Shown here piece by piece: positions 29,673 to 51,874 of a stretch of DNA of 64,000 nucleotides. How positions within the stretch are numbered: the stretch's first letter is position 1; each line of letters begins with the position of its first letter. The position numbers were made by a program, and so were the translations under genes. The notes under the pieces are model-generated. The model was not told the DNA's origin, made no database searches, and saw only the letters and a list, made by a program, of their open reading frames with translations. The stretch is from Chloracidobacterium sp. (GTDB lineage Bacteria; Acidobacteriota; Blastocatellia; Pyrinomonadales; Pyrinomonadaceae): the NCBI GenBank assembly GCA_031430895.1, contig JANPCJ010000349.1, forward strand, positions 95 to 64,094. Reading direction: 5' to 3'.

Positions 29673-29948
29673 ATGAGGATTGAGTATGATCCTGAGAAGC
29701 GGCAGAAAACCATCGACGAGCGAGGGCTTGACTTTGAGGACGCTGCCGCCGTATTCGAGGGCATCACTTTCGAGGTCGAGGATACGCGGCGAGATTATGG
29801 AGAGATACGGATGCTCTGCTTTGGTCATCTCGCCAGTCGGCTGGTGGTTATCGGCTATGTCGAACGTGGATCAATTCGTCACATCTTTAGCATGAGAAAA
29901 GCGAATGAACGTGAAAAAACCAAAATCGGGCCGCATCTTGAGGTCTGA
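29673..29948 (+). CDS. brnT: BrnT-family (DUF497) toxin
   Basis: MRIEYDPEKRQKTIDERGLDFEDAAAVFEG...YGEIRMLCFGHLASRLVVIGYVERGSIRHIFSMRKANEREK. Confidence 0.8.
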   Translation: MRIEYDPEKRQKTIDERGLDFEDAAAVFEGITFEVEDTRRDYGEIRMLCFGHLASRLVVIGYVERGSIRHIFSMRKANEREKTKIGPHLEV

Positions 29949-30183
29949 TCTAGTGCGCGTGGACTCGCACAAGATCATAGCGAACGAGTATAAGGAGCTT
30001 CCTGAGTTGACTGATGAGATGATCGCTCGCGGCACTATCAAGCGTGCGGGACGACCGGTTGCACTCAATCCGCGGCGCCAAGTCACCATTCGTCTGCCTG
30101 AATCAGTTCTCGCCGCATGGAAGGCCTCAGGTCCCGGTTGGCAAACCCGCATGGCCGAATTGCTTGGCGAGCGATCTACTTAA
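29905..30183 (+). CDS. brnA: BrnA-family antitoxin
   Basis: The C-terminal KRAGRPVALNPRRQVTIRLPESVLAAWKASGPGWQTRMAELL is an RHH-like BrnA/DUF4415 pattern. The gene overlaps brnT. Confidence 0.7.
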   Translation: MNVKKPKSGRILRSDLVRVDSHKIIANEYKELPELTDEMIARGTIKRAGRPVALNPRRQVTIRLPESVLAAWKASGPGWQTRMAELLGERST

Positions 30184-30229
30184 TTAAATAAGAGTGTACA
30201 ACTTGTACGCTTTGACATATACTCTTTGT

Positions 30230-30469
30230 ATGAAAACAGTACCTGTTGCCGAAGTGAGATCAAATCTGTCAATGCTGCTCAAGGAAGTGGAATCCGGACA
30301 CGAGATCGGTATTTCGTTTGGAAGACGCCGTGAGACGATTGCCGTCATTGTTCCGATTGCGGAATATAAAAAAATAAAGGCACGGAGACTTGGCTCATTG
30401 GCTGGTAAGCTGACCGTTGAGTTTAAGGACAACTGGAAAATGAGTGACGATGAATTCTTAAGTTCATGA
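30230..30469 (+). CDS. Phd/YefM-type antitoxin
   Basis: From ATG 30230: MKTVPVAEVRSNLSMLLKEVESGHEIGISFGRRRETIAVIVPIAEY. It overlaps the PIN gene by 4 nt. Confidence 0.7.
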   Translation: MKTVPVAEVRSNLSMLLKEVESGHEIGISFGRRRETIAVIVPIAEYKKIKARRLGSLAGKLTVEFKDNWKMSDDEFLSS

Positions 30470-30864
30470 GAATACTGGCCGACACTCACTTTCTAATTTG
30501 GAGTTTTACGAATCCGGAGAAGATAAGTCCCTCAATTGCTAAGCAACTCACTTCCGAACTTAACCAGATTTTTTACAGCCAAGCCAGCCTTTGGGAGATT
30601 TCAATCAAATATAGCTCTGGCAGGTTAGTGCTAAACGGAATGTCGCCGGAAGAGTTGTTTGAAGAGATCGACACAAGTCATTTTTCCTGTCTTCCGCTTA
30701 GGAATGAGGATCTGATCTCATTTTATCGACTACCCGTGGAACATCGCGATCCGTTTGATCGAATCATGATTTGGCAATGTATTAACAATGGTCTTATTTT
30801 CCTATCCGTCGATGATGCCGCTGCAAATTACGAAAAGTATGGTTTGAAGATATTGATTAGCTAA
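30466..30864 (+). CDS. vapC: PIN-domain toxin VapC
   Basis: MRILADTHFLIW, ASLWEISIKYSSGRL and HRDPFDRIMIWQ. It is a paralogue of 50727-51122. Confidence 0.8.
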   Translation: MRILADTHFLIWSFTNPEKISPSIAKQLTSELNQIFYSQASLWEISIKYSSGRLVLNGMSPEELFEEIDTSHFSCLPLRNEDLISFYRLPVEHRDPFDRIMIWQCINNGLIFLSVDDAAANYEKYGLKILIS

Positions 30865-31485: not shown

Positions 31486-32538
31486 TTAAGAAATGGAAAT
31501 TATCTTATTTCCTGTCACTACTTTTCCAATCTCATAACAATTGCCAAAATGATTCTGCACAGCGGCTCTGTCTTCTAATGGGCAAACGACCAACATCCCG
31601 ATTCCCATATTGAATGTGCGGAACATCTCCTTTTCATCGACATTGCCGAGACGCTGCATTAGGCCGAATATTGGAAGTTCGGGCCAGGTTCCTCGGTTTA
31701 TTTCGACTGAGACACCTTCGGGCAGGATTCTTGGGATGTTTTCGAGGAAGCCGCCGCCGGTGATGTGGACGAGGCCTTTGATGAGCGGAGAGCCCTCACT
31801 ACCTTCCGCCTGTGAAACTTCGTCAAGCAGCGGGCCGATCTGTGGCAAAAAACTGGCGTGAGTAGCGAGCAGTGCTTCGCCGACGGTTGTGCCTAGTTCG
31901 TCGATGTACGAATCTGGAGTGTAGCCGCCGACCTCGAAAAAGAGTTTGCGTGCCAAGGAATAGCCGTTTGTCTGTAAACCGGTCGACGGAATTCCGAGAA
32001 CGGCATCGCCCGGCGTGATCGATTTGCCGTCGATGACCTTTGGTTTATCGACGACACCGACGATAAAACCGGCGAGGTCGTATTCGCCATCGGCATACAT
32101 TGAGGGCATCTCGGCTGTTTCGCCGCCGAGCCGGCCGCACCCGTTTTCGCGGCAGGCCCGGGCCATGCCTTCGACGACGGACGCCGTGACATCTGGTTCG
32201 AGTTTCCCGGTCGCAAAATAATCGAGAAAGAATAACGGCCGTGCGCCTTGCACCAAAATATCATTGACGCAGTGATTTACAAGATCGGCGCCGACCGTGT
32301 TGTGGATTCCGGTCTCAAACGCCAGCTTCAGCTTTGTCCCTACGCCGTCCGCCGAAGCGACCAGAATCGGCTCGGCCATCTGTGGAAAAGCTGCGGAAAA
32401 CATCCCGCCAAAGCTGCCGATCTCCGTCAGCGTCCGCTCGTTAAACGTGCTCCGCGCGTATTCGCGTATCTTGGCAACCGCCAGATTTGCGTTGTCGATC
32501 GAGACGCCTGCGTCGGCGTATGAGATTGAACTCGTCAT
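31486..32538 (-). CDS. purM: Phosphoribosylformylglycinamidine cyclo-ligase PurM
   Basis: From ATG 32538 (AAGGAG RBS 8 nt upstream): MTSSISYADAGVSIDN, plus DGVGTKL and GLVHITGGGF. The start overlaps the vapC stop (ATGA). Confidence 0.9.
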   Translation of the reverse strand: MTSSISYADAGVSIDNANLAVAKIREYARSTFNERTLTEIGSFGGMFSAAFPQMAEPILVASADGVGTKLKLAFETGIHNTVGADLVNHCVNDILVQGARPLFFLDYFATGKLEPDVTASVVEGMARACRENGCGRLGGETAEMPSMYADGEYDLAGFIVGVVDKPKVIDGKSITPGDAVLGIPSTGLQTNGYSLARKLFFEVGGYTPDSYIDELGTTVGEALLATHASFLPQIGPLLDEVSQAEGSEGSPLIKGLVHITGGGFLENIPRILPEGVSVEINRGTWPELPIFGLMQRLGNVDEKEMFRTFNMGIGMLVVCPLEDRAAVQNHFGNCYEIGKVVTGNKIISIS

Positions 32539-32927
32539 ATCGGCTCCTTGGCGGTCGGTGCGCACTTCTTTAATATGGCCCGGTCAAAAGTGATTAGTTG
32601 GTTCGCATTTTGCGTCGCTTCTGCAACCGAATAACAATCGATGAACGAAAGACTTCCCAACGCAACGTAAAGGTCAAAGGCTTCGTTGATTAAGGTCTCA
32701 CTGAAAGTAACGGTGTTCAGCTCGAATAGGATCGCCATGAAATTTTTGACGAACTTGCGATCAAGCTTGTAAACCTTTTCAAGCACGAAGACGCATTCCG
32801 CCACAACCGCATCCGTTACGTAGCACGGTGAGTGGCTGACGAACTCAGCGGCCTTGGCTGACTGCTCGGGAACATCATTCAGAATGAGACGAAGAACGAC
32901 ATTAGAATCAAGGCTTGTTACGTTCAT
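32535..32927 (-). CDS. vapC: PIN-domain toxin VapC
   Basis: LDSNVVLRLILND, YVTDAVVAECVFVL and SFIDCYSVAEA. The protein is 130 aa. Confidence 0.75.
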   Translation of the reverse strand: MNVTSLDSNVVLRLILNDVPEQSAKAAEFVSHSPCYVTDAVVAECVFVLEKVYKLDRKFVKNFMAILFELNTVTFSETLINEAFDLYVALGSLSFIDCYSVAEATQNANQLITFDRAILKKCAPTAKEPI

Positions 32928-33190
32928 CGGCCAAACATCTCTTCAGCAGCGATTTCCCTGAGTTCACGTACTGTAAGGCCCTTCAGGTGCTCAGGGATAT
33001 TCACCTTCTTGAGCATTTCATCCCGCAGTTTTTCAAACTCCCCAATTGAAATTCCCGTGTCGATCTCCACGTTCTTACGTTTGTTTACAAAGAGCTTAAC
33101 ATTTTGTCCTGTCTTCAGCCCCAGAGCTTTTCTGATCGGAGAGGCGATCGTTATCGTGCCTTTGCTGGTTATCGTGGTCTTGTATTTCAT
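32924..33190 (-). CDS. AbrB/SpoVT-fold antitoxin VapB
   Basis: MKYKTTITSKGTITIASPIRKALGLKTGQNVKLFV. It overlaps vapC by 4 nt. Confidence 0.75.
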   Translation of the reverse strand: MKYKTTITSKGTITIASPIRKALGLKTGQNVKLFVNKRKNVEIDTGISIGEFEKLRDEMLKKVNIPEHLKGLTVRELREIAAEEMFGR

Positions 33191-33693: not shown

Positions 33694-33839
33694 AAGGCAG
33701 AGACCTGAGCGGTAGCGAGGGTGTTGCCTTCATTTGGTTTGAAGGCAGAGACCTGAGCGGTAGCAAGGGTGTTGCCTTCATTTGGTATTGTTTCGACATA
33801 ACGCAAGAACACACTCCCTACCGGTCGTGTTTCCGCCTT
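33694..33839. repeat. Two tandem REP-B hairpin units (48-bp period) followed by one REP-A unit
   Basis: aaggcagagacctgagcggtagcGagggtgttgccttcatttggt lies at 33694-33738 and again at 33742-33786 with one substitution. gaacacactccctaccggtcgtgtttccgcctt lies at 33807-33839. Confidence 0.85.
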
Positions 33840-35536: not shown

Positions 35537-35752
35537 ATGCAAAAGATGAATCCGAATAAACAGACCCCATTCAAAGTTAGACGAGCAGAATTGACACCCA
35601 TACCACCAGAATCGGAGAGGACGCCCCTGGGCCGGAAATTGATGAAGATTGTAGCTGAGATCGACGCATCCGACGATCCCCCTATGAGTGAGGAAGATCT
35701 TGAACGTGAGCTGCTGCTGCGACGCGGTGGATATACTGGTAATGTCCAATAA
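35537..35752 (+). CDS. Putative antitoxin partner of the downstream PIN protein
   Basis: 71 aa, charged and proline-rich. It overlaps the PIN gene start by 11 nt. No family was recognised. Confidence 0.4.
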   Translation: MQKMNPNKQTPFKVRRAELTPIPPESERTPLGRKLMKIVAEIDASDDPPMSEEDLERELLLRRGGYTGNVQ

Positions 35753-36161
35753 AAAGCTTTGTTTTCTCGATGCGTCAGTACTGATTTCCGCATTTCGAAA
35801 GCCAACCGACTTGACTTTTGCTCGAAGAATGCGTGCTCATCAACTCCTTAACGATCATGAGCGCGAATTTGTCGCCAGTGAATTTCTGAAACTAGAGGTT
35901 CTGCCGATGGCAACATTTTTTGCCAAGAGGCGCGAACTTCGATTCTTGAGGGATTTTTTCGACTCGATAGCTCATTGGGCGCCGTGTGAAACTCTAATAT
36001 CTCCCGCGCTAGATCTCGCCTCTGCCTACGGCCTCGGCGCACTTGACGCCCTTCACCTTTGCGCCGCAAAACATTTCGATGCCGAATTCATTTCGGCTGA
36101 ACGCCCAACTAAGCCGATTTACAAAGCCTACCCAAAAATTGCATCTATCTACGAAGACTAG
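35742..36161 (+). CDS. PIN-domain protein (VapC-like toxin)
   Basis: From ATG 35742: MSNKKLCFLDASVLISAF, EFLKLEVLP and GALDALHLCAAK. Confidence 0.65.
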   Translation: MSNKKLCFLDASVLISAFRKPTDLTFARRMRAHQLLNDHEREFVASEFLKLEVLPMATFFAKRRELRFLRDFFDSIAHWAPCETLISPALDLASAYGLGALDALHLCAAKHFDAEFISAERPTKPIYKAYPKIASIYED

Positions 36162-36165
36162 CCCG

Positions 36166-38079
36166 ATGGACGTCCAAACACACCACGCAATAATCGCCCA
36201 GATCGTCGGCAAGGAATTCGGATCGAAGCCGGGCCGAATCCAGCGCATGGCCAACGGCATCTGTAACGAGGTGTATCTGGTCGGCGTTGACGGTCGCGAA
36301 GTAATAATCCGGCTCAAGTCGGAGGCTCGTTACATGCTGGGTTCGCACAATCACATTCCGCTTTTTCAGTCGAAAGGCATCCGTGTTCCGGAGATATTGG
36401 CCGAAGACTATTCGAAACGCGATCTGCCGTTTGCGTACCAAATTCAGAGCAAGATCGATGGGCGCGATATCAAAGACGTGGTCGATACCCTAACCGACGG
36501 ACAGCTTCGCGCGGTTGGCGGCGAGATTGCGAATATCTTTCGCCGCCTCATCGATGTTCCGAATAGCGGAAAGTTCGGTGTATTGTGGGGCGACGACAAT
36601 GATCTAGTAGATTCGTGGGCGGCCGAGGTCGCGCGAGTAACCGAGGTCGTTCTCGGTTGGGGCGCGAAAACCGGTGTACTCGACGCGAAACTGGAAAAAA
36701 TTCTTAGATGGATCAATTCGGAGTACAAAGACTATTTTAACAGCGTCCGCCCGATCACCTATTTCGGCGATATCTGTTCAAAGAATGTGATGATCCACGA
36801 GGGTAGATTCTCGGGTCTGGTCGATCTCGATAGTCTCGCCCAGGGCGATCCGCTCGAGGCCATCGGCCGCATAAAAGCAAGCTGGTACGGTACGCACCAC
36901 GGCCAAATTTATTCCGAAGCGGTTATGGACGCTCTACAGCTGTCGCCGAAGCACCGAAAGCTGGTGACAATGTACGCGCTGCTGAATCGAATGTTCTGGA
37001 CCTGCGAGAACGGAATTCAGTTCAATCAAAACACGAACTCGACCGTTGACCGTGAAAGAGAGGTAAATGATAAAAAGGTTGTCGACCAGCTTCTTGCTGA
37101 ACTGCAAGGGCCCGTCGTAATCTCTTTGCCTGTTTTGACCTCCCCGAACGAAACCGTCGAACCGGTCAGGCGCGCGCGGCCTAACGCCGAAACTGTCGCG
37201 TCGCGCCTCGAACCGGTCAAACCTCACGAAAATACTCCGGGGTTTGTTCCCCCGTTGTCGGCGGACGAAGACCTACGGAGATTTGAGGTTTCGACAGTTC
37301 CGGTGGTTGCGGCCATCAGCGAACTTCCCGCCCCGGCGCGCGTAAATGCCCTGCAATCGGAGCCGGTGAAGCAACCTTCGCCGCAAAAAATTATTCTCGA
37401 AGCGAGCGGGCTATCAAAAACCTACATAAGCGACGGCATTGGATTTGATGCGCTCAAAAACGTCGACCTTCAGATCGGACAAGGTGATTGTGTCGCGATC
37501 GTGGGCAAATCCGGCAGCGGTAAATCGACGTTGATGCACCTGCTGGCCTGTCTCGACGCACCAACCGATGGTTATGTCTATGTTGACGGCGACGAAACGT
37601 CGACTATGTCGGAAACAGACAAGAATACGCTGCGCAACCGAAAATTCGGCTTTGTTTTTCAACAGTTTTTCCTCAATGGCCGCGACACGGTATTTGAAAA
37701 TGTAGTGCTGCCGATGCGTATCCGCGGAGTTTCGGATTTTCAAATGATACAGGATGCGGACGAGGCCCTCGGGTCGGTCGGCCTGTCAGACAAATCCGAC
37801 AAGAAGGCAAAAGATCTTTCCGGCGGCGAGAAACAGCGGGTCTGCATCGCCCGGGCGCTTGTCGGCAAGCCGCAGGTAATATTTACCGATGAACCCACAG
37901 GAAACCTCGATTCAAACACCGGTGCGGCAGTTGAAAACATGCTGTTCGATCTAAACCGCGCTAAAGGCATCACCCTCGTGATAGTTACGCACGACAGCGA
38001 ACTGGCCGACCGCTGCGACCGGGTCATCGAAATGAAAGACGGACGCATCGTATCGCAAAGGCAGAAACACGACCGGTAG
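36166..38079 (+). CDS. Fusion protein: APH/choline-kinase-like phosphotransferase domain + Pro-rich linker + MacB/LolD-type ABC ATPase
   Basis: The start is set at ATG 36166 (MDVQTHH), 4 nt after the PIN stop. The N-domain has NEVYLVGVDGREVIIRLK and YFGDICSKNVMIHEGRFSGLVDLDS (an HxDxxxxN-like loop with F for H, plus DLD). The C-domain has GKSGSGKST, LSGGEKQR and VIFTDEPTGNLD. The last codons (QKHDR*) lie in a REP-A unit. Confidence 0.75.
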   Translation: MDVQTHHAIIAQIVGKEFGSKPGRIQRMANGICNEVYLVGVDGREVIIRLKSEARYMLGSHNHIPLFQSKGIRVPEILAEDYSKRDLPFAYQIQSKIDGRDIKDVVDTLTDGQLRAVGGEIANIFRRLIDVPNSGKFGVLWGDDNDLVDSWAAEVARVTEVVLGWGAKTGVLDAKLEKILRWINSEYKDYFNSVRPITYFGDICSKNVMIHEGRFSGLVDLDSLAQGDPLEAIGRIKASWYGTHHGQIYSEAVMDALQLSPKHRKLVTMYALLNRMFWTCENGIQFNQNTNSTVDREREVNDKKVVDQLLAELQGPVVISLPVLTSPNETVEPVRRARPNAETVASRLEPVKPHENTPGFVPPLSADEDLRRFEVSTVPVVAAISELPAPARVNALQSEPVKQPSPQKIILEASGLSKTYISDGIGFDALKNVDLQIGQGDCVAIVGKSGSGKSTLMHLLACLDAPTDGYVYVDGDETSTMSETDKNTLRNRKFGFVFQQFFLNGRDTVFENVVLPMRIRGVSDFQMIQDADEALGSVGLSDKSDKKAKDLSGGEKQRVCIARALVGKPQVIFTDEPTGNLDSNTGAAVENMLFDLNRAKGITLVIVTHDSELADRCDRVIEMKDGRIVSQRQKHDR

Positions 38080-38152
38080 GGAGTGTGTTTCACTTTGCCC
38101 GGCAGTCAACAGGTGACAGAGACACACTCCCTACCGGTCGTGTTTCCGCCTT
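38058..38152. repeat. Inverted pair of REP-A units between the ABC ATPase and permease genes
   Basis: aaggcagaaacacgaccggtagggagtgtgtt (38058-38089) and gacacactccctaccggtcgtgtttccgcctt (38121-38152). Confidence 0.85.
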
Positions 38153-38160
38153 ATTTGAAT

Positions 38161-39441
38161 ATGAAATTTTGGGATCTGATAAAAATCGCTAACCGTAATC
38201 TTTTTCGCAATAAGCTGCGTACCTTTTTGACCGTTGCAGCAATATTTGTCGGCGCGTTTACGCTAACGATGACAAACGGCCTCGGCGACGGTGTGCGCGG
38301 CTACGTCGAAAGTCAGGTCAAGAATATCGAGAGCGACAGCGTCATACGCGTCCGCAAAAAGGTGGAAAATCCGGAAGGCGACCAACCGCCCGACGTTCCA
38401 AGAGAATACCGGGACGATTCACCCGTCGTGGACGAGAGTGCGCCGATCGACCCCGCCGCGTTCGTAGTGACCCTGCCCCAAATCGAAAATGCCATGCGCG
38501 GCATCGAGGGTGTGAAGAGCATTACGCCGCGATACACGACCGACGCGGAATACATTACGCTCGACGGGCAAAAGAAGTATGACGTTCAATTGTCGATGCT
38601 CTCGGATGGCATCACCCAAAAAACGGAAGCCGGAGAGTCGATAACCGGTTCGGGCCAGATCGTAATACCGCTTGGGCTCGCACGCTTATTCGATCAGAAG
38701 ATCGAAAATCTGGTTGGCAAAACGGCCACGATCGGCTACAAAGGGGCTGACGGATCGATGAGAACACTCGCGCTCCACATTGTCGGCGTCGCGACAAAAG
38801 GTTTCCAGACAAACACGAGTTCGTTTGTCGATTCAATCACGGCTCGAAACATACACGCGGTGCAAAAACGCGAACAGGGCCCAGACAGGTTCATGGGTTT
38901 TTCAGTCCAGATGGCAACCACTGATGCGACGAAAATCGATGCCGCCAAGAAACGGCTCAGCGAACTGGGTTTTGAAGCGGAAACTTTCGCGGATAGCCAA
39001 AAACGCATTTATGACGGGATCGGCATCTTCAAGCTGGCGATGGGCCTCGTCGCCGTAATTGCGCTGCTTGCCGCCTCGTTCGGAATCATTAACACACTTG
39101 TCATCGCCGTTCTCGAACGCACAAAAGAGATTGGTCTGCAAAAAGCGCTCGGTATGGGCCGCGGAAAGATTTTTGCGATCTTTTCGCTCGAATCCGTTTT
39201 GATCGGTTTCTGGGGAGCTTTGCTTGGCACGATTGCGGGGATAATTGTGGGCTCGATCACAAATCGGGTTCTCACCGCCGCCTACGCCGAATCGTTCGAG
39301 GGGTTTAATCTTTTTGCGTTCACACTGCCGTCGATAGCGTCGGTCATACTCATTGTCTCGGGCGTCGCCTTCGTCGCCGGCGTCATGCCCGCCTGGCGTG
39401 CAAGCCGTCTAAACCCCATCGAATCGCTCCGATACGAATAG
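38161..39441 (+). CDS. FtsX/MacB-family ABC transporter permease
   Basis: The start is set at ATG 38161 (MKFWDLIKIANRNLFRNKLRTFLT), because the listed upstream codons translate REP-A. It has TM1, a ~250-aa external domain and three C-terminal TMs. The end is PAWRASRLNPIESLRYE. Confidence 0.85.
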   Translation: MKFWDLIKIANRNLFRNKLRTFLTVAAIFVGAFTLTMTNGLGDGVRGYVESQVKNIESDSVIRVRKKVENPEGDQPPDVPREYRDDSPVVDESAPIDPAAFVVTLPQIENAMRGIEGVKSITPRYTTDAEYITLDGQKKYDVQLSMLSDGITQKTEAGESITGSGQIVIPLGLARLFDQKIENLVGKTATIGYKGADGSMRTLALHIVGVATKGFQTNTSSFVDSITARNIHAVQKREQGPDRFMGFSVQMATTDATKIDAAKKRLSELGFEAETFADSQKRIYDGIGIFKLAMGLVAVIALLAASFGIINTLVIAVLERTKEIGLQKALGMGRGKIFAIFSLESVLIGFWGALLGTIAGIIVGSITNRVLTAAYAESFEGFNLFAFTLPSIASVILIVSGVAFVAGVMPAWRASRLNPIESLRYE

Positions 39442-39662: not shown

Positions 39663-40322
39663 ATGAAGCGAATATTTCCATACATCTTTATCCTTTTGGC
39701 AGCCGGTTCCGCCCTATACGCTCAACCGGCGCCTGACGCCGTCGAACTCACCCGCTTGCTAAACGAATTCCTCGCCGGCGCCGGCAGAAATGATGCGGCT
39801 GTCCATGACCGTTTCTGGGCCGACGACCTCATCTACACGCGCTCCGCCGGCACTCGAACCAACAAAGCAGACCTAATGAAAGGCGTCCGTTCGGCACCGG
39901 CCGCTAAACCGGACGATCCAACCACGGTTTATACCGCCGAGGACGTGCGCATTCAACAATATGGCAGCGCCGCCGTCGTCGCTTTTAAACTGGTCGGCAA
40001 CACTACTCGCCCGGACGGCACAAAATCGGTCTCAAATCACCTCAACACTGGCACATTCATCAAACGAAACGGAAAATGGCAGGTCGTCGCGTGGCAGGCA
40101 ACCATCGTTCCAAAACCGGTTCCTGAAACAAAGTCCGCATCTCAGACCCAGGCAATCGAGCCCAAACCCGCTACCCTTGTAACCACCCAAAATGCAGCAG
40201 AGGCTCCGCACCCGTCGAGCACCGTCGGCGCCAGAACTTACCTGCGCGGCCCCCGCGGCGGCTGTTACTACCTAAGCTCCGGCGGGAAGAAGATCTACGT
40301 CGATCACGACAATTGCAAATGA
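39663..40322 (+). CDS. Secreted SnoaL/NTF2-like (DUF4440-like) protein with a Cys-flanked basic C-terminal motif
   Basis: The signal peptide is MKRIFPYIFILLAAGSALYA. The NTF2-like core includes FWADDLIYTRSAG and GKWQVVAWQAT. The C-terminus is RTYLRGPRGGCYYLSSGGKKIYVDHDNCK. Confidence 0.6.
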   Translation: MKRIFPYIFILLAAGSALYAQPAPDAVELTRLLNEFLAGAGRNDAAVHDRFWADDLIYTRSAGTRTNKADLMKGVRSAPAAKPDDPTTVYTAEDVRIQQYGSAAVVAFKLVGNTTRPDGTKSVSNHLNTGTFIKRNGKWQVVAWQATIVPKPVPETKSASQTQAIEPKPATLVTTQNAAEAPHPSSTVGARTYLRGPRGGCYYLSSGGKKIYVDHDNCK

Positions 40323-42096: not shown

Positions 42097-43506
42097 TTGA
42101 AACAAATTGCCAAAAAATCATCCGTCTGGGACGACGCCCTAAGCATCGTTAAGGCACACCTTAATACTGACGTCTATAACACGTGGTTCCGTCCGATCAG
42201 CTTCGAATCACTGGACGAACACAACCACATTCTACTACTGCGAGCGGGCAAGGTAACAAAGGACTGGGTCTGTCATTACTACACCGGTCTGCTTGGCCAA
42301 ACGCTGGCCGAGCTCGAGCTTTCGGATTATGAGATCGAATGGCAGATCGACGCCGACCAACCGCTCGAAGCTCAGTTTGAAGACGAAGAGGTGGCCGATC
42401 TTTTCTTTTCGCCAAAAAACAAATCAGCATCCGTCGTTCCCGGACGCAGCGGAACCGCCCATTTTATTGATATCGAACCGGTCGAGGACTATCTCAATCC
42501 GAAGTACACATTCGAAAAATTTGTGGTCGGCTCATGCAACCGGTTTGGCCACGCGGCCGCCAAAGCGGTAGCCGAAGCGCCGGGTTCCACATATAACCCG
42601 CTCTTTCTGTACGGCGGCGTCGGGCTCGGCAAAACGCACCTCATGCACGCAATCGGCCACTCTATAAAGCTGAGGGCGCCGCATATGAAGATCGCGTACA
42701 TAACATCCGAACGGTTTATGAACGAGCTGATCAACGCGATCCGCTTTAATAAAACGCCTGCGTTTCGCGATAGATACCGTTCGATCGACGTCCTGTTGAT
42801 GGACGACGTTCAGTTTATGGCCGGCAAGGACCGGACGCAGGAAGAGTTTTTTCACACATTCAACACGCTGCACAATGGGCAAAAGCAGATCGTCGTATCC
42901 AGCGACTGCCCGCCGCGCGAAATACCGACGCTCGAGGAAAGGCTGCATTCGCGTTTCGAGTGGGGACTGATCGCCGATCTCGAACCGCCCGATCTCGAAA
43001 CAAAGGTCGCGATCCTCAAACGCAAGGCGGATATGGACGGCATCGAGTTGTCCGACGAGATCGCGATGTACATCGCCGGCAAAGTTAAGAGCAACGTCCG
43101 CGAGCTCGAAGGCTCGCTTGTCCGGCTCGTCGCCATCTCGTCCATGAAAGGCGTCCCGATAACAAAGCTGCTCGCCCAGGAATCGATGAAAAACATCCTC
43201 GACAGCGACCGGCCATCGGGCTTGACGATCGAACATATCGCGCGCACCGTCGCCGGGCATTACAAAATGACCGTCCAGGACATCAAGTCAAAAAACAACT
43301 CGCGCGGCATCGCCGTGCCACGTCAGGTGGCGATGTATCTGTGTAAAAGGTTGACCCGGCACAGCTTCCCGGAGATCGGCCGCGAGTTCGGCGGCAAGCA
43401 TCATACGACCGTGATGCACTCGGTTGACAAGATTAAAACGCTGTATAACGACGACCGGAATTTCCACAGGGAAATTAACGAGCTAATTGATAATCTTTGC
43501 AGCTAG
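42097..43506 (+). CDS. dnaA: Chromosomal replication initiator DnaA
   Basis: YNPLFLYGGVGLGKTHLMHAIG (Walker A), LLMDDVQF, VRELEGSL and the C-terminal HTTVMHS DNA-binding motif. It has a TTG start. Confidence 0.95.
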   Translation: MKQIAKKSSVWDDALSIVKAHLNTDVYNTWFRPISFESLDEHNHILLLRAGKVTKDWVCHYYTGLLGQTLAELELSDYEIEWQIDADQPLEAQFEDEEVADLFFSPKNKSASVVPGRSGTAHFIDIEPVEDYLNPKYTFEKFVVGSCNRFGHAAAKAVAEAPGSTYNPLFLYGGVGLGKTHLMHAIGHSIKLRAPHMKIAYITSERFMNELINAIRFNKTPAFRDRYRSIDVLLMDDVQFMAGKDRTQEEFFHTFNTLHNGQKQIVVSSDCPPREIPTLEERLHSRFEWGLIADLEPPDLETKVAILKRKADMDGIELSDEIAMYIAGKVKSNVRELEGSLVRLVAISSMKGVPITKLLAQESMKNILDSDRPSGLTIEHIARTVAGHYKMTVQDIKSKNNSRGIAVPRQVAMYLCKRLTRHSFPEIGREFGGKHHTTVMHSVDKIKTLYNDDRNFHREINELIDNLCS

Positions 43507-43998: not shown

Positions 43999-45204
43999 AT
44001 GGAATTCAAAATCAACCAGAGCACCTTGAAAGAAGAATTGGGATTTATCCAGGGCGTGGTCGAACGCAAAACGACTATCCCCGTTCTGTCGAACATCCTG
44101 ATCGAATCGCTTGGCGAGAACGAGATTCGCATCGTCGGCACCGACCTCGACTGCACAATCCGATGCGATGCCGAGGCCGAGATTATCAAGCCCGGTGCAA
44201 TCTGCATCCAGGCCCGCAAGCTGTTTGACATCGTCCGAGCCCTCGCACCCGGCGATGTCCATTTCAAAAAAGAGGACAACGAATGGGTCACCATGAAGTC
44301 GGCCCACGCCAATTTCCGCCTCGCGGGCGTGAGCCGTGACCAGTTCCCCGAGATACCGCAATTTAAGAGCGTTCCGATGAAGCTCGCGGCCGAGACATTC
44401 AGCTATTTTATCCGCAACACGGCCTTTGCGATCACAAACGAGCAGTCGCGCTTCACCCTTTCCGGCGCCAAATTCATTCTCGCCGAGGGTTCCGCGAAAA
44501 TGGTCACCACCGACGGCCACCGCCTCGCCTATGTCGAGCGTGCGATCGACGACAAAGAAGCGGTCATGGACACGCTCATCCCCAAAAAGGCCCTGCTGGA
44601 ACTCGTAAAACTCTCCCGCGGCGAAGGCGAAGTATCCTTCGGCGAAGACTTGAACCACATCTATTTCGAAACCGAGGGCCGTCTGCTAATAACGCGCAAG
44701 CTCAGTGGCCAATTTCCAAATTACGAGATGGTCATGCCCAAGGACAACGACAAATCCGTCGTCTTTGACCTCGAAGAAATGCGTAACGCCGTTCGCCGCA
44801 TGTCGCTCATCGCCGACGACCGCAACCGCTCGATCCGCCTCAACGTCTCCGAAGGCCAGATCGAGGTCACCGCCCAATCCGCCGAAGAAGGCGAAGGCCG
44901 CGAGATCGTCCAGGCCGACTACACCGGCGAGGAGATCCAACTCGGCTTCAACTGGCAATACCTCCTCGAATTCCTAACCAACGCCGCCACCGGCGATGTA
45001 GCCTTCGCCGGTGGCGAGTCGGCAGCCGCAGATGCAGCGGCAGGAGACGGTGCCACTGCCGCCGCCACTGCCACTGCCAAAGAGGGCAAAGCCCCGCTCC
45101 GCATCACCTTCGACTTCAAAGACGCTAACGCCCAAACCCAAATGTCTATCGCCGGCGAAACCACTTACGATTACAAATACATCGTCATGCCGCTGCGGAT
45201 ATGA
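43999..45204 (+). CDS. dnaN: DNA polymerase III beta sliding clamp DnaN, with an Ala-rich insertion near the C-terminus
   Basis: MEFKINQSTLKEELGFIQGVVERKTTIPVLSNILIE and TDGHRLA. It ends in VMPLRI. The protein is 401 aa. Confidence 0.95.
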   Translation: MEFKINQSTLKEELGFIQGVVERKTTIPVLSNILIESLGENEIRIVGTDLDCTIRCDAEAEIIKPGAICIQARKLFDIVRALAPGDVHFKKEDNEWVTMKSAHANFRLAGVSRDQFPEIPQFKSVPMKLAAETFSYFIRNTAFAITNEQSRFTLSGAKFILAEGSAKMVTTDGHRLAYVERAIDDKEAVMDTLIPKKALLELVKLSRGEGEVSFGEDLNHIYFETEGRLLITRKLSGQFPNYEMVMPKDNDKSVVFDLEEMRNAVRRMSLIADDRNRSIRLNVSEGQIEVTAQSAEEGEGREIVQADYTGEEIQLGFNWQYLLEFLTNAATGDVAFAGGESAAADAAAGDGATAAATATAKEGKAPLRITFDFKDANAQTQMSIAGETTYDYKYIVMPLRI

Positions 45205-51122: not shown

Positions 51123-51874
51123 ACTCTTGTTCGATAGTCAAGTTTCACTCGGTCGGCTACACCATCGGCGGCGCGGCGATACTGAACGATTTGAATCTTG
51201 ATATCGAGAAAGGCGAGGTCCTGGTTTTGCTCGGCGAATCAGGTTGCGGGAAGACAACAACTTTAAAACTGATCAACCGTCTCATCGAGCCCACAACCGG
51301 CGAGATCGTGGTCGAAGGCACATCTGCGGTGGATTGGGAGCCGATTTTGCTCAGACGGCGGATCGGATATGTTTTGCAGGACGGTGGGCTGTTTCCGCAT
51401 TTTACCGTCAGCGAAAACGTGGCCCTGGTCCTTACGCTTGAAAATTGGGACGCGGAGCGAAAGAGGTCGCGGACCACCGAAATGCTCGATCTGGTCGGGC
51501 TTGATCCGGCAAAATTTGCTCCCCGGTTTCCGCATGAGCTTTCCGGCGGCCAGCGTCAGCGTGTGGGCGTGGCGCGGGCGTTGGCGTCTGACCCCGATCT
51601 GCTTCTGCTTGACGAGCCCTTCGGCGCTCTCGACGCCATCACGCGGACAAATTTGCAGAAAGAATTCGCCCGGCTCGTGCGTGAACTTGGCAAGACATCG
51701 GTCTTTGTCACGCACGATCTGCATGAGGCAATGTTGCTCGGCTCTCGAATCGCGCTGATGGACAAAGGTAAGATCGTGCTGCTGGCGACCCCAGACAATT
51801 TTGTGTCGTCGGAATTACCCCTCGCCCGCGCGTATCTCGAAACCATTCGGACGACGCTCCAGATTGGCGTATGA
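51116..51874 (+). CDS. ABC transporter ATP-binding protein (quaternary-amine/osmoprotectant type)
   Basis: LLGESGCGKTTT, LSGGQRQRVGVARAL and LLLDEPFGALD. It has a TTG start overlapping the vapC stop. Confidence 0.8.
   Translation: MVDSCSIVKFHSVGYTIGGAAILNDLNLDIEKGEVLVLLGESGCGKTTTLKLINRLIEPTTGEIVVEGTSAVDWEPILLRRRIGYVLQDGGLFPHFTVSENVALVLTLENWDAERKRSRTTEMLDLVGLDPAKFAPRFPHELSGGQRQRVGVARALASDPDLLLLDEPFGALDAITRTNLQKEFARLVRELGKTSVFVTHDLHEAMLLGSRIALMDKGKIVLLATPDNFVSSELPLARAYLETIRTTLQIGV

Follow-up and report, generated by a model that had tools for sequence, protein, structure and literature searches.

Type VII ATP-binding cassette (ABC) systems, such as MacB, LolCDE, FtsEX and YbbAP, act with periplasmic partners and draw their substrates from the periplasm or the outer leaflet; MacB and Spr0694-0695 act in peptide or macrolide resistance. 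We know of no cytoplasmic enzyme domain carried by a type VII ATPase, and a literature search found none. In the ABC transporter Rv1747 of Mycobacterium tuberculosis, FHA domains are joined by a phosphorylated, disordered linker, as far as the protein is described in PMC8339232. Here we describe a gene that joins a kinase domain of the aminoglycoside phosphotransferase (APH) fold to the nucleotide-binding domain (NBD) of a type VII ABC transporter, and that is followed by the permease gene. It lies in a 64,000-nucleotide stretch of DNA from Chloracidobacterium sp., an acidobacterium of soil in the family Pyrinomonadaceae (assembly GCA_031430895.1, contig JANPCJ010000349.1), called the window throughout.

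The fusion is genuine, rare and uncharacterised, and comparison with relatives speaks against its most exciting mechanistic readings. We are a little more inclined to believe than to doubt that the kinase is a tethered but autonomous small-molecule enzyme, and that the fusion mainly secures co-expression and a membrane-proximal location. Both superfamilies, APH and NBD, are well known, and neither part reaches the cut-off of any characterised subfamily. The author of an earlier note on this DNA knew of no characterised example of such an architecture; in line with this, a literature search for APH-NBD fusions, or for accessory kinases on type VII ABC systems, found no relevant paper and none describing this architecture.

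Results

A genuine fused gene

Pfam and the reading of the open reading frame (ORF) confirmed, in domains and in motifs, the three parts that the earlier note had distinguished in the 637-aa protein: an APH-fold kinase domain, a Pro-rich linker and a complete LolD/MacB-type NBD (coordinates in Table 1). A stop or a frame shift between the two domains, which would make them separate genes, is absent from the ORF of the window; both states exist in relatives. The initiating ATG lies four bases past the stop of a PIN-domain gene, and the alignments of homologues all start at the Met that it encodes. At least six further full-length fused genes were found on independent contigs, namely L003/L008 (GCA_031431415.1), L037, L041, L044, L046 (a contig of 467 kb) and L050 (LNFM01000079.1). 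Because fused genes are read on independent assemblies, the fusion is a real gene and no assembly artefact. In a scan for promoters and terminators, which also gave terminator-like hits, promoter-like sites were no commoner than in shuffled sequences.

Six full-length fused genes were compared pairwise. Amino-acid identity was 64-75% in the kinase domain and 79-87% in the NBD, with ratios of non-synonymous to synonymous substitution (dN/dS) of 0.07-0.14 and 0.04-0.12, respectively, which are approximate since dS is saturated. Both domains have been under long purifying selection while fused.

The linker is rich in Pro, Val, Glu and Ala and contains several Ser/Thr. Its 93 residues, 17% of them Pro, agree with the Pro-rich linker of about 90 residues seen earlier, and no family model matched it. 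In an AlphaFold2 model of the full-length protein, residues 318-426 have a predicted local distance difference test score (pLDDT) below 50 and no secondary structure; this model, which comes without an inter-domain error estimate, informs on linker disorder and not on the docking of kinase and NBD. Among the fused genes the linker measures 45-125 aa, is 14-36% identical and has a dN of about 1. It extends up to the site where the ancestral NBD had its start Met, replaced by Ile in the window (KIILEAS versus KIMLEAS); since this Met is lost, the NBD of the window can be produced solely as a fusion. The model and the comparison suggest that the linker is a disordered, hypervariable tether, which need only exist.

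Distribution of fused, split and stand-alone forms

A search with the N-terminal domain only returned 393 relatives, the closest of which (60-76% identity) come from Pyrinomonadaceae (Acidobacteriota). Fourteen clusters, formed at 90% identity, are of fusion length (571-601 aa) and carry both APH and ABC_tran, and most other relatives are stand-alone proteins of about 315 aa. Against 1.84 billion representatives of 50%-identity clusters the kinase domain gave 664 hits, and among the best 150 a single one was of fusion length (P0121, 612 aa). A metagenome scan with a single protein as query gave no match; with a family-alignment query instead, about 40 loci with homologues of 40-56% identity were recovered, none with an adjacent NBD. 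In an unbootstrapped neighbour-joining tree, all fused and split forms belong to one clade nested within the stand-alone Pyrinomonadaceae kinases. The domain-architecture search for APH and ABC_tran fusions proposed in the earlier note thus places the fusion as a derived form, limited to one Pyrinomonadaceae subclade.

The transporter was surveyed in one genome per species, which yielded 24 loci with an orthologous permease (56-80% identity), 23 of them informative. In 22 of these 23 the NBD is a plain protein of about 229 aa, starting MLE.., and APH is absent within 8 kb; the remaining one, L008, is fused. The kinase also occurs by itself: L034, L038, L040 and L042 have the order DUF445-(PIN)-kinase, with neither NBD nor permease directly downstream, and the L034 kinase is the closest relative of the window kinase domain (76% identity). 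Two loci are split. In L005, a single TGA interrupts the otherwise common frame of kinase and NBD; in L039 the two are split by a frame shift, the kinase TGA overlapping the GTG start of a 293-aa NBD, whose N-terminal extension is homologous to the window linker.

Stand-alone orthologues from Pyrinomonadaceae (64-66% identity) are flanked by genes for a rhodanese and a TPMT/TehB-type methyltransferase in L001 (6001-8146) and L006 (4246-6438), and the same rhodanese and TPMT-type neighbours are found in L087 and L098. This flanking hints at an original role of the kinase apart from the ABC transporter. In other phyla (a gammaproteobacterial metagenome-assembled genome and metagenome contigs), members of the family are fused to, or lie beside, GNAT acetyltransferases: P0062 has an N-terminal GNAT domain, and the neighbouring genes are seen in L035 (4230-6477), where the kinase gene also follows a second APH/choline-kinase-like gene, and in L036 (5001-6750). 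Such arrangements resemble clusters of antibiotic-modifying enzymes.

The kinase domain

The N-terminal domain matched a kinase-fold model, Pfam APH (PF01636), at aa 25-241 (E=3e-15, 57 bits versus a gathering score of 23.2). An AlphaFold2 model of it, built with 36 family members, had a pLDDT of 91.8 and a predicted template-modelling score (pTM) of 0.89. Compared with the PDB by Foldseek, this model retrieved APH(4)-Ia, APH(2'')-IIIa, -IVa and -IIa, and fructosamine-3-kinases, at template-modelling (TM) scores of 0.6-0.77 and 11-16% identity; the probability of 1.00 and the TM scores of 0.69-0.77 to APH(4)-Ia and APH(2'')-IIIa indicate the bilobal kinase fold. By sequence search the sole solved relative was the hygromycin-B 4-O-kinase APH(4)-Ia (E=0.004). 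In the alignment to it, D202 falls on D198, K206/N207 on N202/N203, D220 on D216, and R49 on the Arg of 'YVLRV'.

The motifs of the domain read GICNEVY, R49, Y199-F-G-D202-ICS-K206-N207 and G217-LV-D220-L-D222. Conservation was followed over 224 family members, 118 close relatives and 106 distant cluster representatives. R49, Y199, D202, N207 and D222 are invariant in the close relatives, where K206 and D220 each differ in one sequence, and all seven are kept in 93-100% of the distant representatives. The VIIRLK stretch pointed out earlier as nucleotide-binding was upheld, with R49 and not K51 as its invariant basic residue, and the metal-binding DLD is indeed there, D220 and D222 being invariant or nearly so. 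The catalytic Asp and Asn and the DFG-like metal-binding Asp are present (D202, N207, D220). The His of the HxD motif and the Lys of strand beta-3 are absent, their places being taken by F200 and R49. In FGDICSKN the earlier note had rightly seen that Asp and Asn are kept; F in place of His is, however, no change specific to this protein, as position 200 is F or Y in 115 of the 118 close relatives (Y in 71, F in 44), and the distant representatives, most of which have L, likewise carry no His there. Absence of the catalytic-loop His is thus a trait of a large APH-like clade and not a lesion of the window protein.

Competence of the domain is argued by its conserved catalytic residues, by purifying selection and by the fold match at a TM score of about 0.7. 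It is probably an active kinase acting on small molecules, from an APH subfamily as yet uncharacterised. A pseudokinase acting as a sensor, also raised in the earlier note, was rejected as unlikely: D202, K206, N207, D220 and D222 are near-invariant, and dN/dS is about 0.1 in the fused lineage. For a link with macrolide phosphotransferases we found no basis, either in alignment, in Foldseek or in NCBIfam; the nearest solved relatives are APH(4)-Ia, APH(2'') and fructosamine-3-kinase, all distant. Among the NCBIfam resistance-enzyme models the best match was APH(3'), with 24.4 bits versus 205; Cph and Vph gave 12-14 bits versus cut-offs of 390-400, and Mph no match. Anti-phage defence was unsupported as well: in PADLOC the kinase domain had no match, and those of the remainder were just of a generic ATPase or LolE-like kind.

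The transporter

Pfam ABC_tran was found at aa 430-578 (E=8.5e-34). As had been read from the letters, the NBD is complete, with all its ATPase motifs intact: Walker A GKSGSGKS at 447, the Q-loop at 498, LSGGE at 551, VIFTDEP at 571 (Walker B and Glu) and VTHD at 607 (H-loop). Its best NCBIfam matches were LolD, YbbA, MacB and FtsE, all under their cut-offs, and its best PDB match was LolD (5.6e-56).

The permease matched MacB_PCD (1.6e-12) and FtsX (9e-17) in Pfam. It has four hydrophobic segments (19-37, 292-310, 337-355 and 391-409), the first and second of which enclose an external domain of about 255 aa, and its nearest solved relatives are YtrF, Spr0695, MacB, LolC and LolF. The earlier description as an FtsX/MacB-type permease with four transmembrane segments and a large external domain therefore stands; its start at GTG 38083 does not, the most likely start being ATG 38161 (MKFWDL), where the orthologue alignments all begin. 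This permease topology, together with an NBD of the LolD/MacB/FtsE clade with intact motifs, corresponds to a type VII ABC system.

Among the neighbouring ORFs scanned, none matched a membrane-fusion (MacA/HlyD-type) or outer-membrane family, in agreement with the earlier reading. Three known systems were considered and rejected. For MacAB-TolC, no adaptor or outer-membrane gene is nearby, NBD and permease are separate genes, and the MacB score is 195 bits versus 966. For LolCDE, LolD scores 244 bits versus 307.75, and lolCE 87 bits versus 362.45. For FtsEX, FtsE scores 190.5 bits versus 264.85, and FtsX 26-40 bits versus 225-255. A second, unrelated ABC-type NBD lies about 12 kb downstream, at window positions 51170-51778, and is 34% identical to the fusion NBD over 207 residues.

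Genomic neighbourhood

Table 1. Features of the fusion locus, in window coordinates.
Feature	Position	Strand	Basis
Fusion gene	36166..38079	+	single uninterrupted ORF, 637 aa
APH-fold kinase domain, aa 1-315	36166..37110	+	Pfam, AlphaFold2 model, Foldseek, residue conservation
Linker, aa 316-408, 93 aa	37111..37389	+	AlphaFold2 pLDDT, comparison with fused genes
LolD/MacB-type ABC NBD, aa 409-637 and stop codon	37390..38079	+	ABC_tran, NCBIfam, PDB, motifs
Type VII (MacB/FtsX-type) permease	38161..39441	+	Pfam MacB_PCD and FtsX, transmembrane scan, PDB relatives
DUF445 protein, one predicted C-terminal hydrophobic segment	33843..35447	+	Pfam, transmembrane scan, synteny
Candidate toxin-antitoxin pair (VapBC-type) between DUF445 and fusion gene	35537..36161	+	ORFs, PIN Pfam match
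SnoaL/DUF4440 (NTF2-like) protein, N-terminus signal-peptide-like	39663..40322	+	Pfam, synteny

The fusion gene belongs to a conserved block with the order purM (minus strand), DUF445, kinase where present, NBD, permease, SnoaL/DUF4440, DUF2807, NuiA (minus strand) and dnaA. DUF445 is the conserved upstream neighbour; in relatives, its stop codon and the start of the following kinase or fusion gene overlap. In the window the two are separated by the candidate toxin-antitoxin pair, made of a 71-aa ORF without Pfam match (35537-35752) and a PIN-domain gene with a probable start at 35742 and its end at 36161. L005, L040, L045 and L050 have this insertion too, whereas L003, L037 and L039 lack it, so that the DUF445-kinase junction is an insertion hot spot.

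The SnoaL/DUF4440 gene accompanies the NBD-permease pair in the window and in L010, L013, L017-L019, L024, L037, L046 and L050. In the window and five of these relatives it immediately follows the permease gene; in the other four it immediately precedes the NBD. By analogy with LolA for LolCDE and TesA for YbbAP, the SnoaL-like protein could be a periplasmic partner of the type VII ABC system. The gene is also kept in L034, where neither NBD nor permease is seen.

Further upstream, between 29905 and 33190, other toxin-antitoxin genes flank purM (31486-32565, minus strand): a BrnA antitoxin (29905-30183), a Phd/YefM and PIN pair (30194-30864), and, on the minus strand, a PIN gene next to one that resembles MazE/AbrB weakly and below the threshold (32535-33190). 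A 48-bp tandem repeat of 1.9 copies (33694-33786, 97% matching), each copy with a terminator-like hairpin, lies just upstream of DUF445. On the other side, past a 415-bp intergenic gap and about 2.7 kb downstream of the permease, dnaA (42097-43506) and dnaN (43999-45204) adjoin, which puts the locus near the replication origin; a GC-skew profile at 2 kb showed no sharp switch at the dnaA region.

Discussion

The order of events that we favour is the following. In Pyrinomonadaceae, the starting state would have been a type VII ABC pair, one gene for the NBD and one for the permease, near dnaA and downstream of DUF445. In one subclade, a stand-alone gene for an APH-fold kinase of about 315 aa would have been inserted between DUF445 and the NBD gene, and would then have been joined to the latter in frame in a single event, when a stop was lost or the frame shifted where genes lie tightly packed and overlap. 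The junction would now be translated as a hypervariable, disordered, Pro-rich tether, and the merged gene would have persisted. In a transporter of two NBDs and two permeases there would thus be a pair of kinase domains on the cytoplasmic side, each held by a flexible tether of about 90 residues. Conservation and selection show that kinase domain and NBD are both still catalytically competent. The kinase would most likely phosphorylate a cytoplasmic small molecule, as do its structural relatives, the antibiotic and ketosamine kinases; the transporter, judging from its family, would do envelope work by mechanotransmission; and the distribution of both suggests that the one works independently of the other.

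We judge the kinase autonomous because the transporter is common without it, because the kinase is kept without an adjacent transporter, and because the covalent link is labile. An obligate 'modify and expel' mechanism, or a gating one, as envisaged in the earlier note, is weakened by the same facts: transporters without kinase in 22 of 23 species genomes, kinases without adjacent transporter in four relatives, and an alternation of fused and split forms. Several points weigh on the other side. The fusion was kept across a divergence that saturates synonymous sites, and the window has lost the ancestral start Met of its NBD (KIILEAS), so that selection may favour the linkage. Fusion of neighbouring genes is a classic sign of functional interaction. 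The tree that nests the fused forms is without bootstrap, and most kinase-only contigs are short (3-6 kb), so that a transporter may sit elsewhere in those genomes.

A first alternative, possible although we hold it unlikely, is a two-layer resistance module. The kinase would inactivate a toxic small molecule in the cytoplasm, for example an aminoglycoside-like or other antibiotic, and the MacB-type transporter would remove the same compound or shield its target in the envelope, the fusion fixing the stoichiometry and placing the kinase at the compound's entry point. The nearest structural relatives of the kinase, APH(4)-Ia and APH(2''), are antibiotic kinases; the family lies beside, or is fused to, GNAT acetyltransferases in other phyla (P0062, L035, L036), as in AAC-APH enzymes; the nearest solved relatives of the permease include S. 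pneumoniae Spr0694-0695 (5xu1) and MacB; and the fusion is under purifying selection, with the internal NBD start lost in the window. However, the transporter is ancestral and lacks the kinase in nearly all informative species genomes, and the four kinase-only loci have neither NBD nor permease directly downstream. No resistance-enzyme model was matched above its cut-off, a phosphorylated product made in the cytoplasm is not an obvious cargo for a type VII system, and no adaptor or outer-membrane partner was found among the neighbouring ORFs scanned.

It is also doubtful, although conceivable, that the kinase is a working part of the machine in a broader sense, either in a ligand- or phosphorylation-gated transporter, or by chemically marking a compound for handling by the transporter, perhaps together with the periplasmic NTF2-like protein that accompanies it. 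If true, this would define a new class of enzyme-coupled type VII ABC system.

The narrower proposal of a regulatory module, in which ATP hydrolysis by the transporter would be gated by the kinase-fold domain, through ligand sensing or through phosphorylation of the linker or the NBD, seems to us improbable. Its placement N-terminal to the NBD, by way of a disordered linker containing Ser/Thr, matches known regulatory modules such as that of Rv1747, as far as described in PMC8339232, and two copies per transporter dimer would be expected. Yet no phospho-acceptor motif is conserved in the linker, whose length differs among fused genes (45-125 aa); the great majority of the kinase family are stand-alone proteins of about 315 aa; natural split forms exist (L005, L039); orthologous transporters do their work in the absence of the kinase; and in fold the domain is closest to kinases of small molecules rather than of proteins.

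That two separate genes merely look fused, or that the kinase part is the dead remnant of a decaying pseudogene, hardly deserves credence: relatives L005 and L039 do have split versions, and the contig name of L005 resembles the output of long-read assemblers, which are error-prone, but six more full-length fused genes in independent assemblies from different samples led us to reject the two-gene reading, while a dN/dS of about 0.1 and 53 of 53 family-invariant positions kept in the window speak against a dead kinase.

If kinase and transporter do cooperate, the locus would be a compact system linking cytoplasmic chemistry to mechanotransmission, and could also reveal a new family of antibiotic-modifying kinases from soil Acidobacteriota. 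If they do not, as in the autonomous-kinase reading that we prefer, it offers a natural series of the fusion of operon neighbours, with absent, inserted, stop-split, frame-shift-split and fused states among close relatives, and a caution against inferring function from a 'Rosetta stone' fusion.

Among known systems, the transporter resembles LolCDE/LolDF, YtrEF, Spr0694-0695, YbbAP and MacB by its NBD of the LolD/MacB/FtsE clade and by its permease, with four transmembrane segments (TM1 to TM4), an external MacB_PCD between TM1 and TM2, and an FtsX C-terminal domain. It differs from them in that its NBD bears an N-terminal APH-fold domain, that no adaptor or outer-membrane gene was found nearby, and that it stays below the cut-offs of LolD, LolC/E, FtsE, FtsX and MacB. 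With APH(4)-Ia, APH(2'') and fructosamine-3-kinase, the kinase shares the bilobal fold (TM score 0.6-0.77) and an aligned catalytic Asp, Asn and metal-binding Asp, and, with APH(4)-Ia, Arg for Lys in strand beta-3; unlike them, it has a loop [FY]-G-D-x3-K-N without His, is only 11-16% identical, and fits no resistance model. The bifunctional AAC(6')-Ie/APH(2'')-Ia likewise has an APH-fold domain covalently joined to a second functional domain; in the window, however, the partner is a transporter ATPase rather than a second modifying enzyme, and the linker is long and predicted to be disordered. Rv1747 belongs to a different ABC type from the window transporter. Both combine a cytoplasmic accessory module and a disordered linker with an ABC transporter, whereas the Rv1747 module, as far as PMC8339232 describes it, binds phospho-threonine, is the target of a separate kinase and has no kinase fold.

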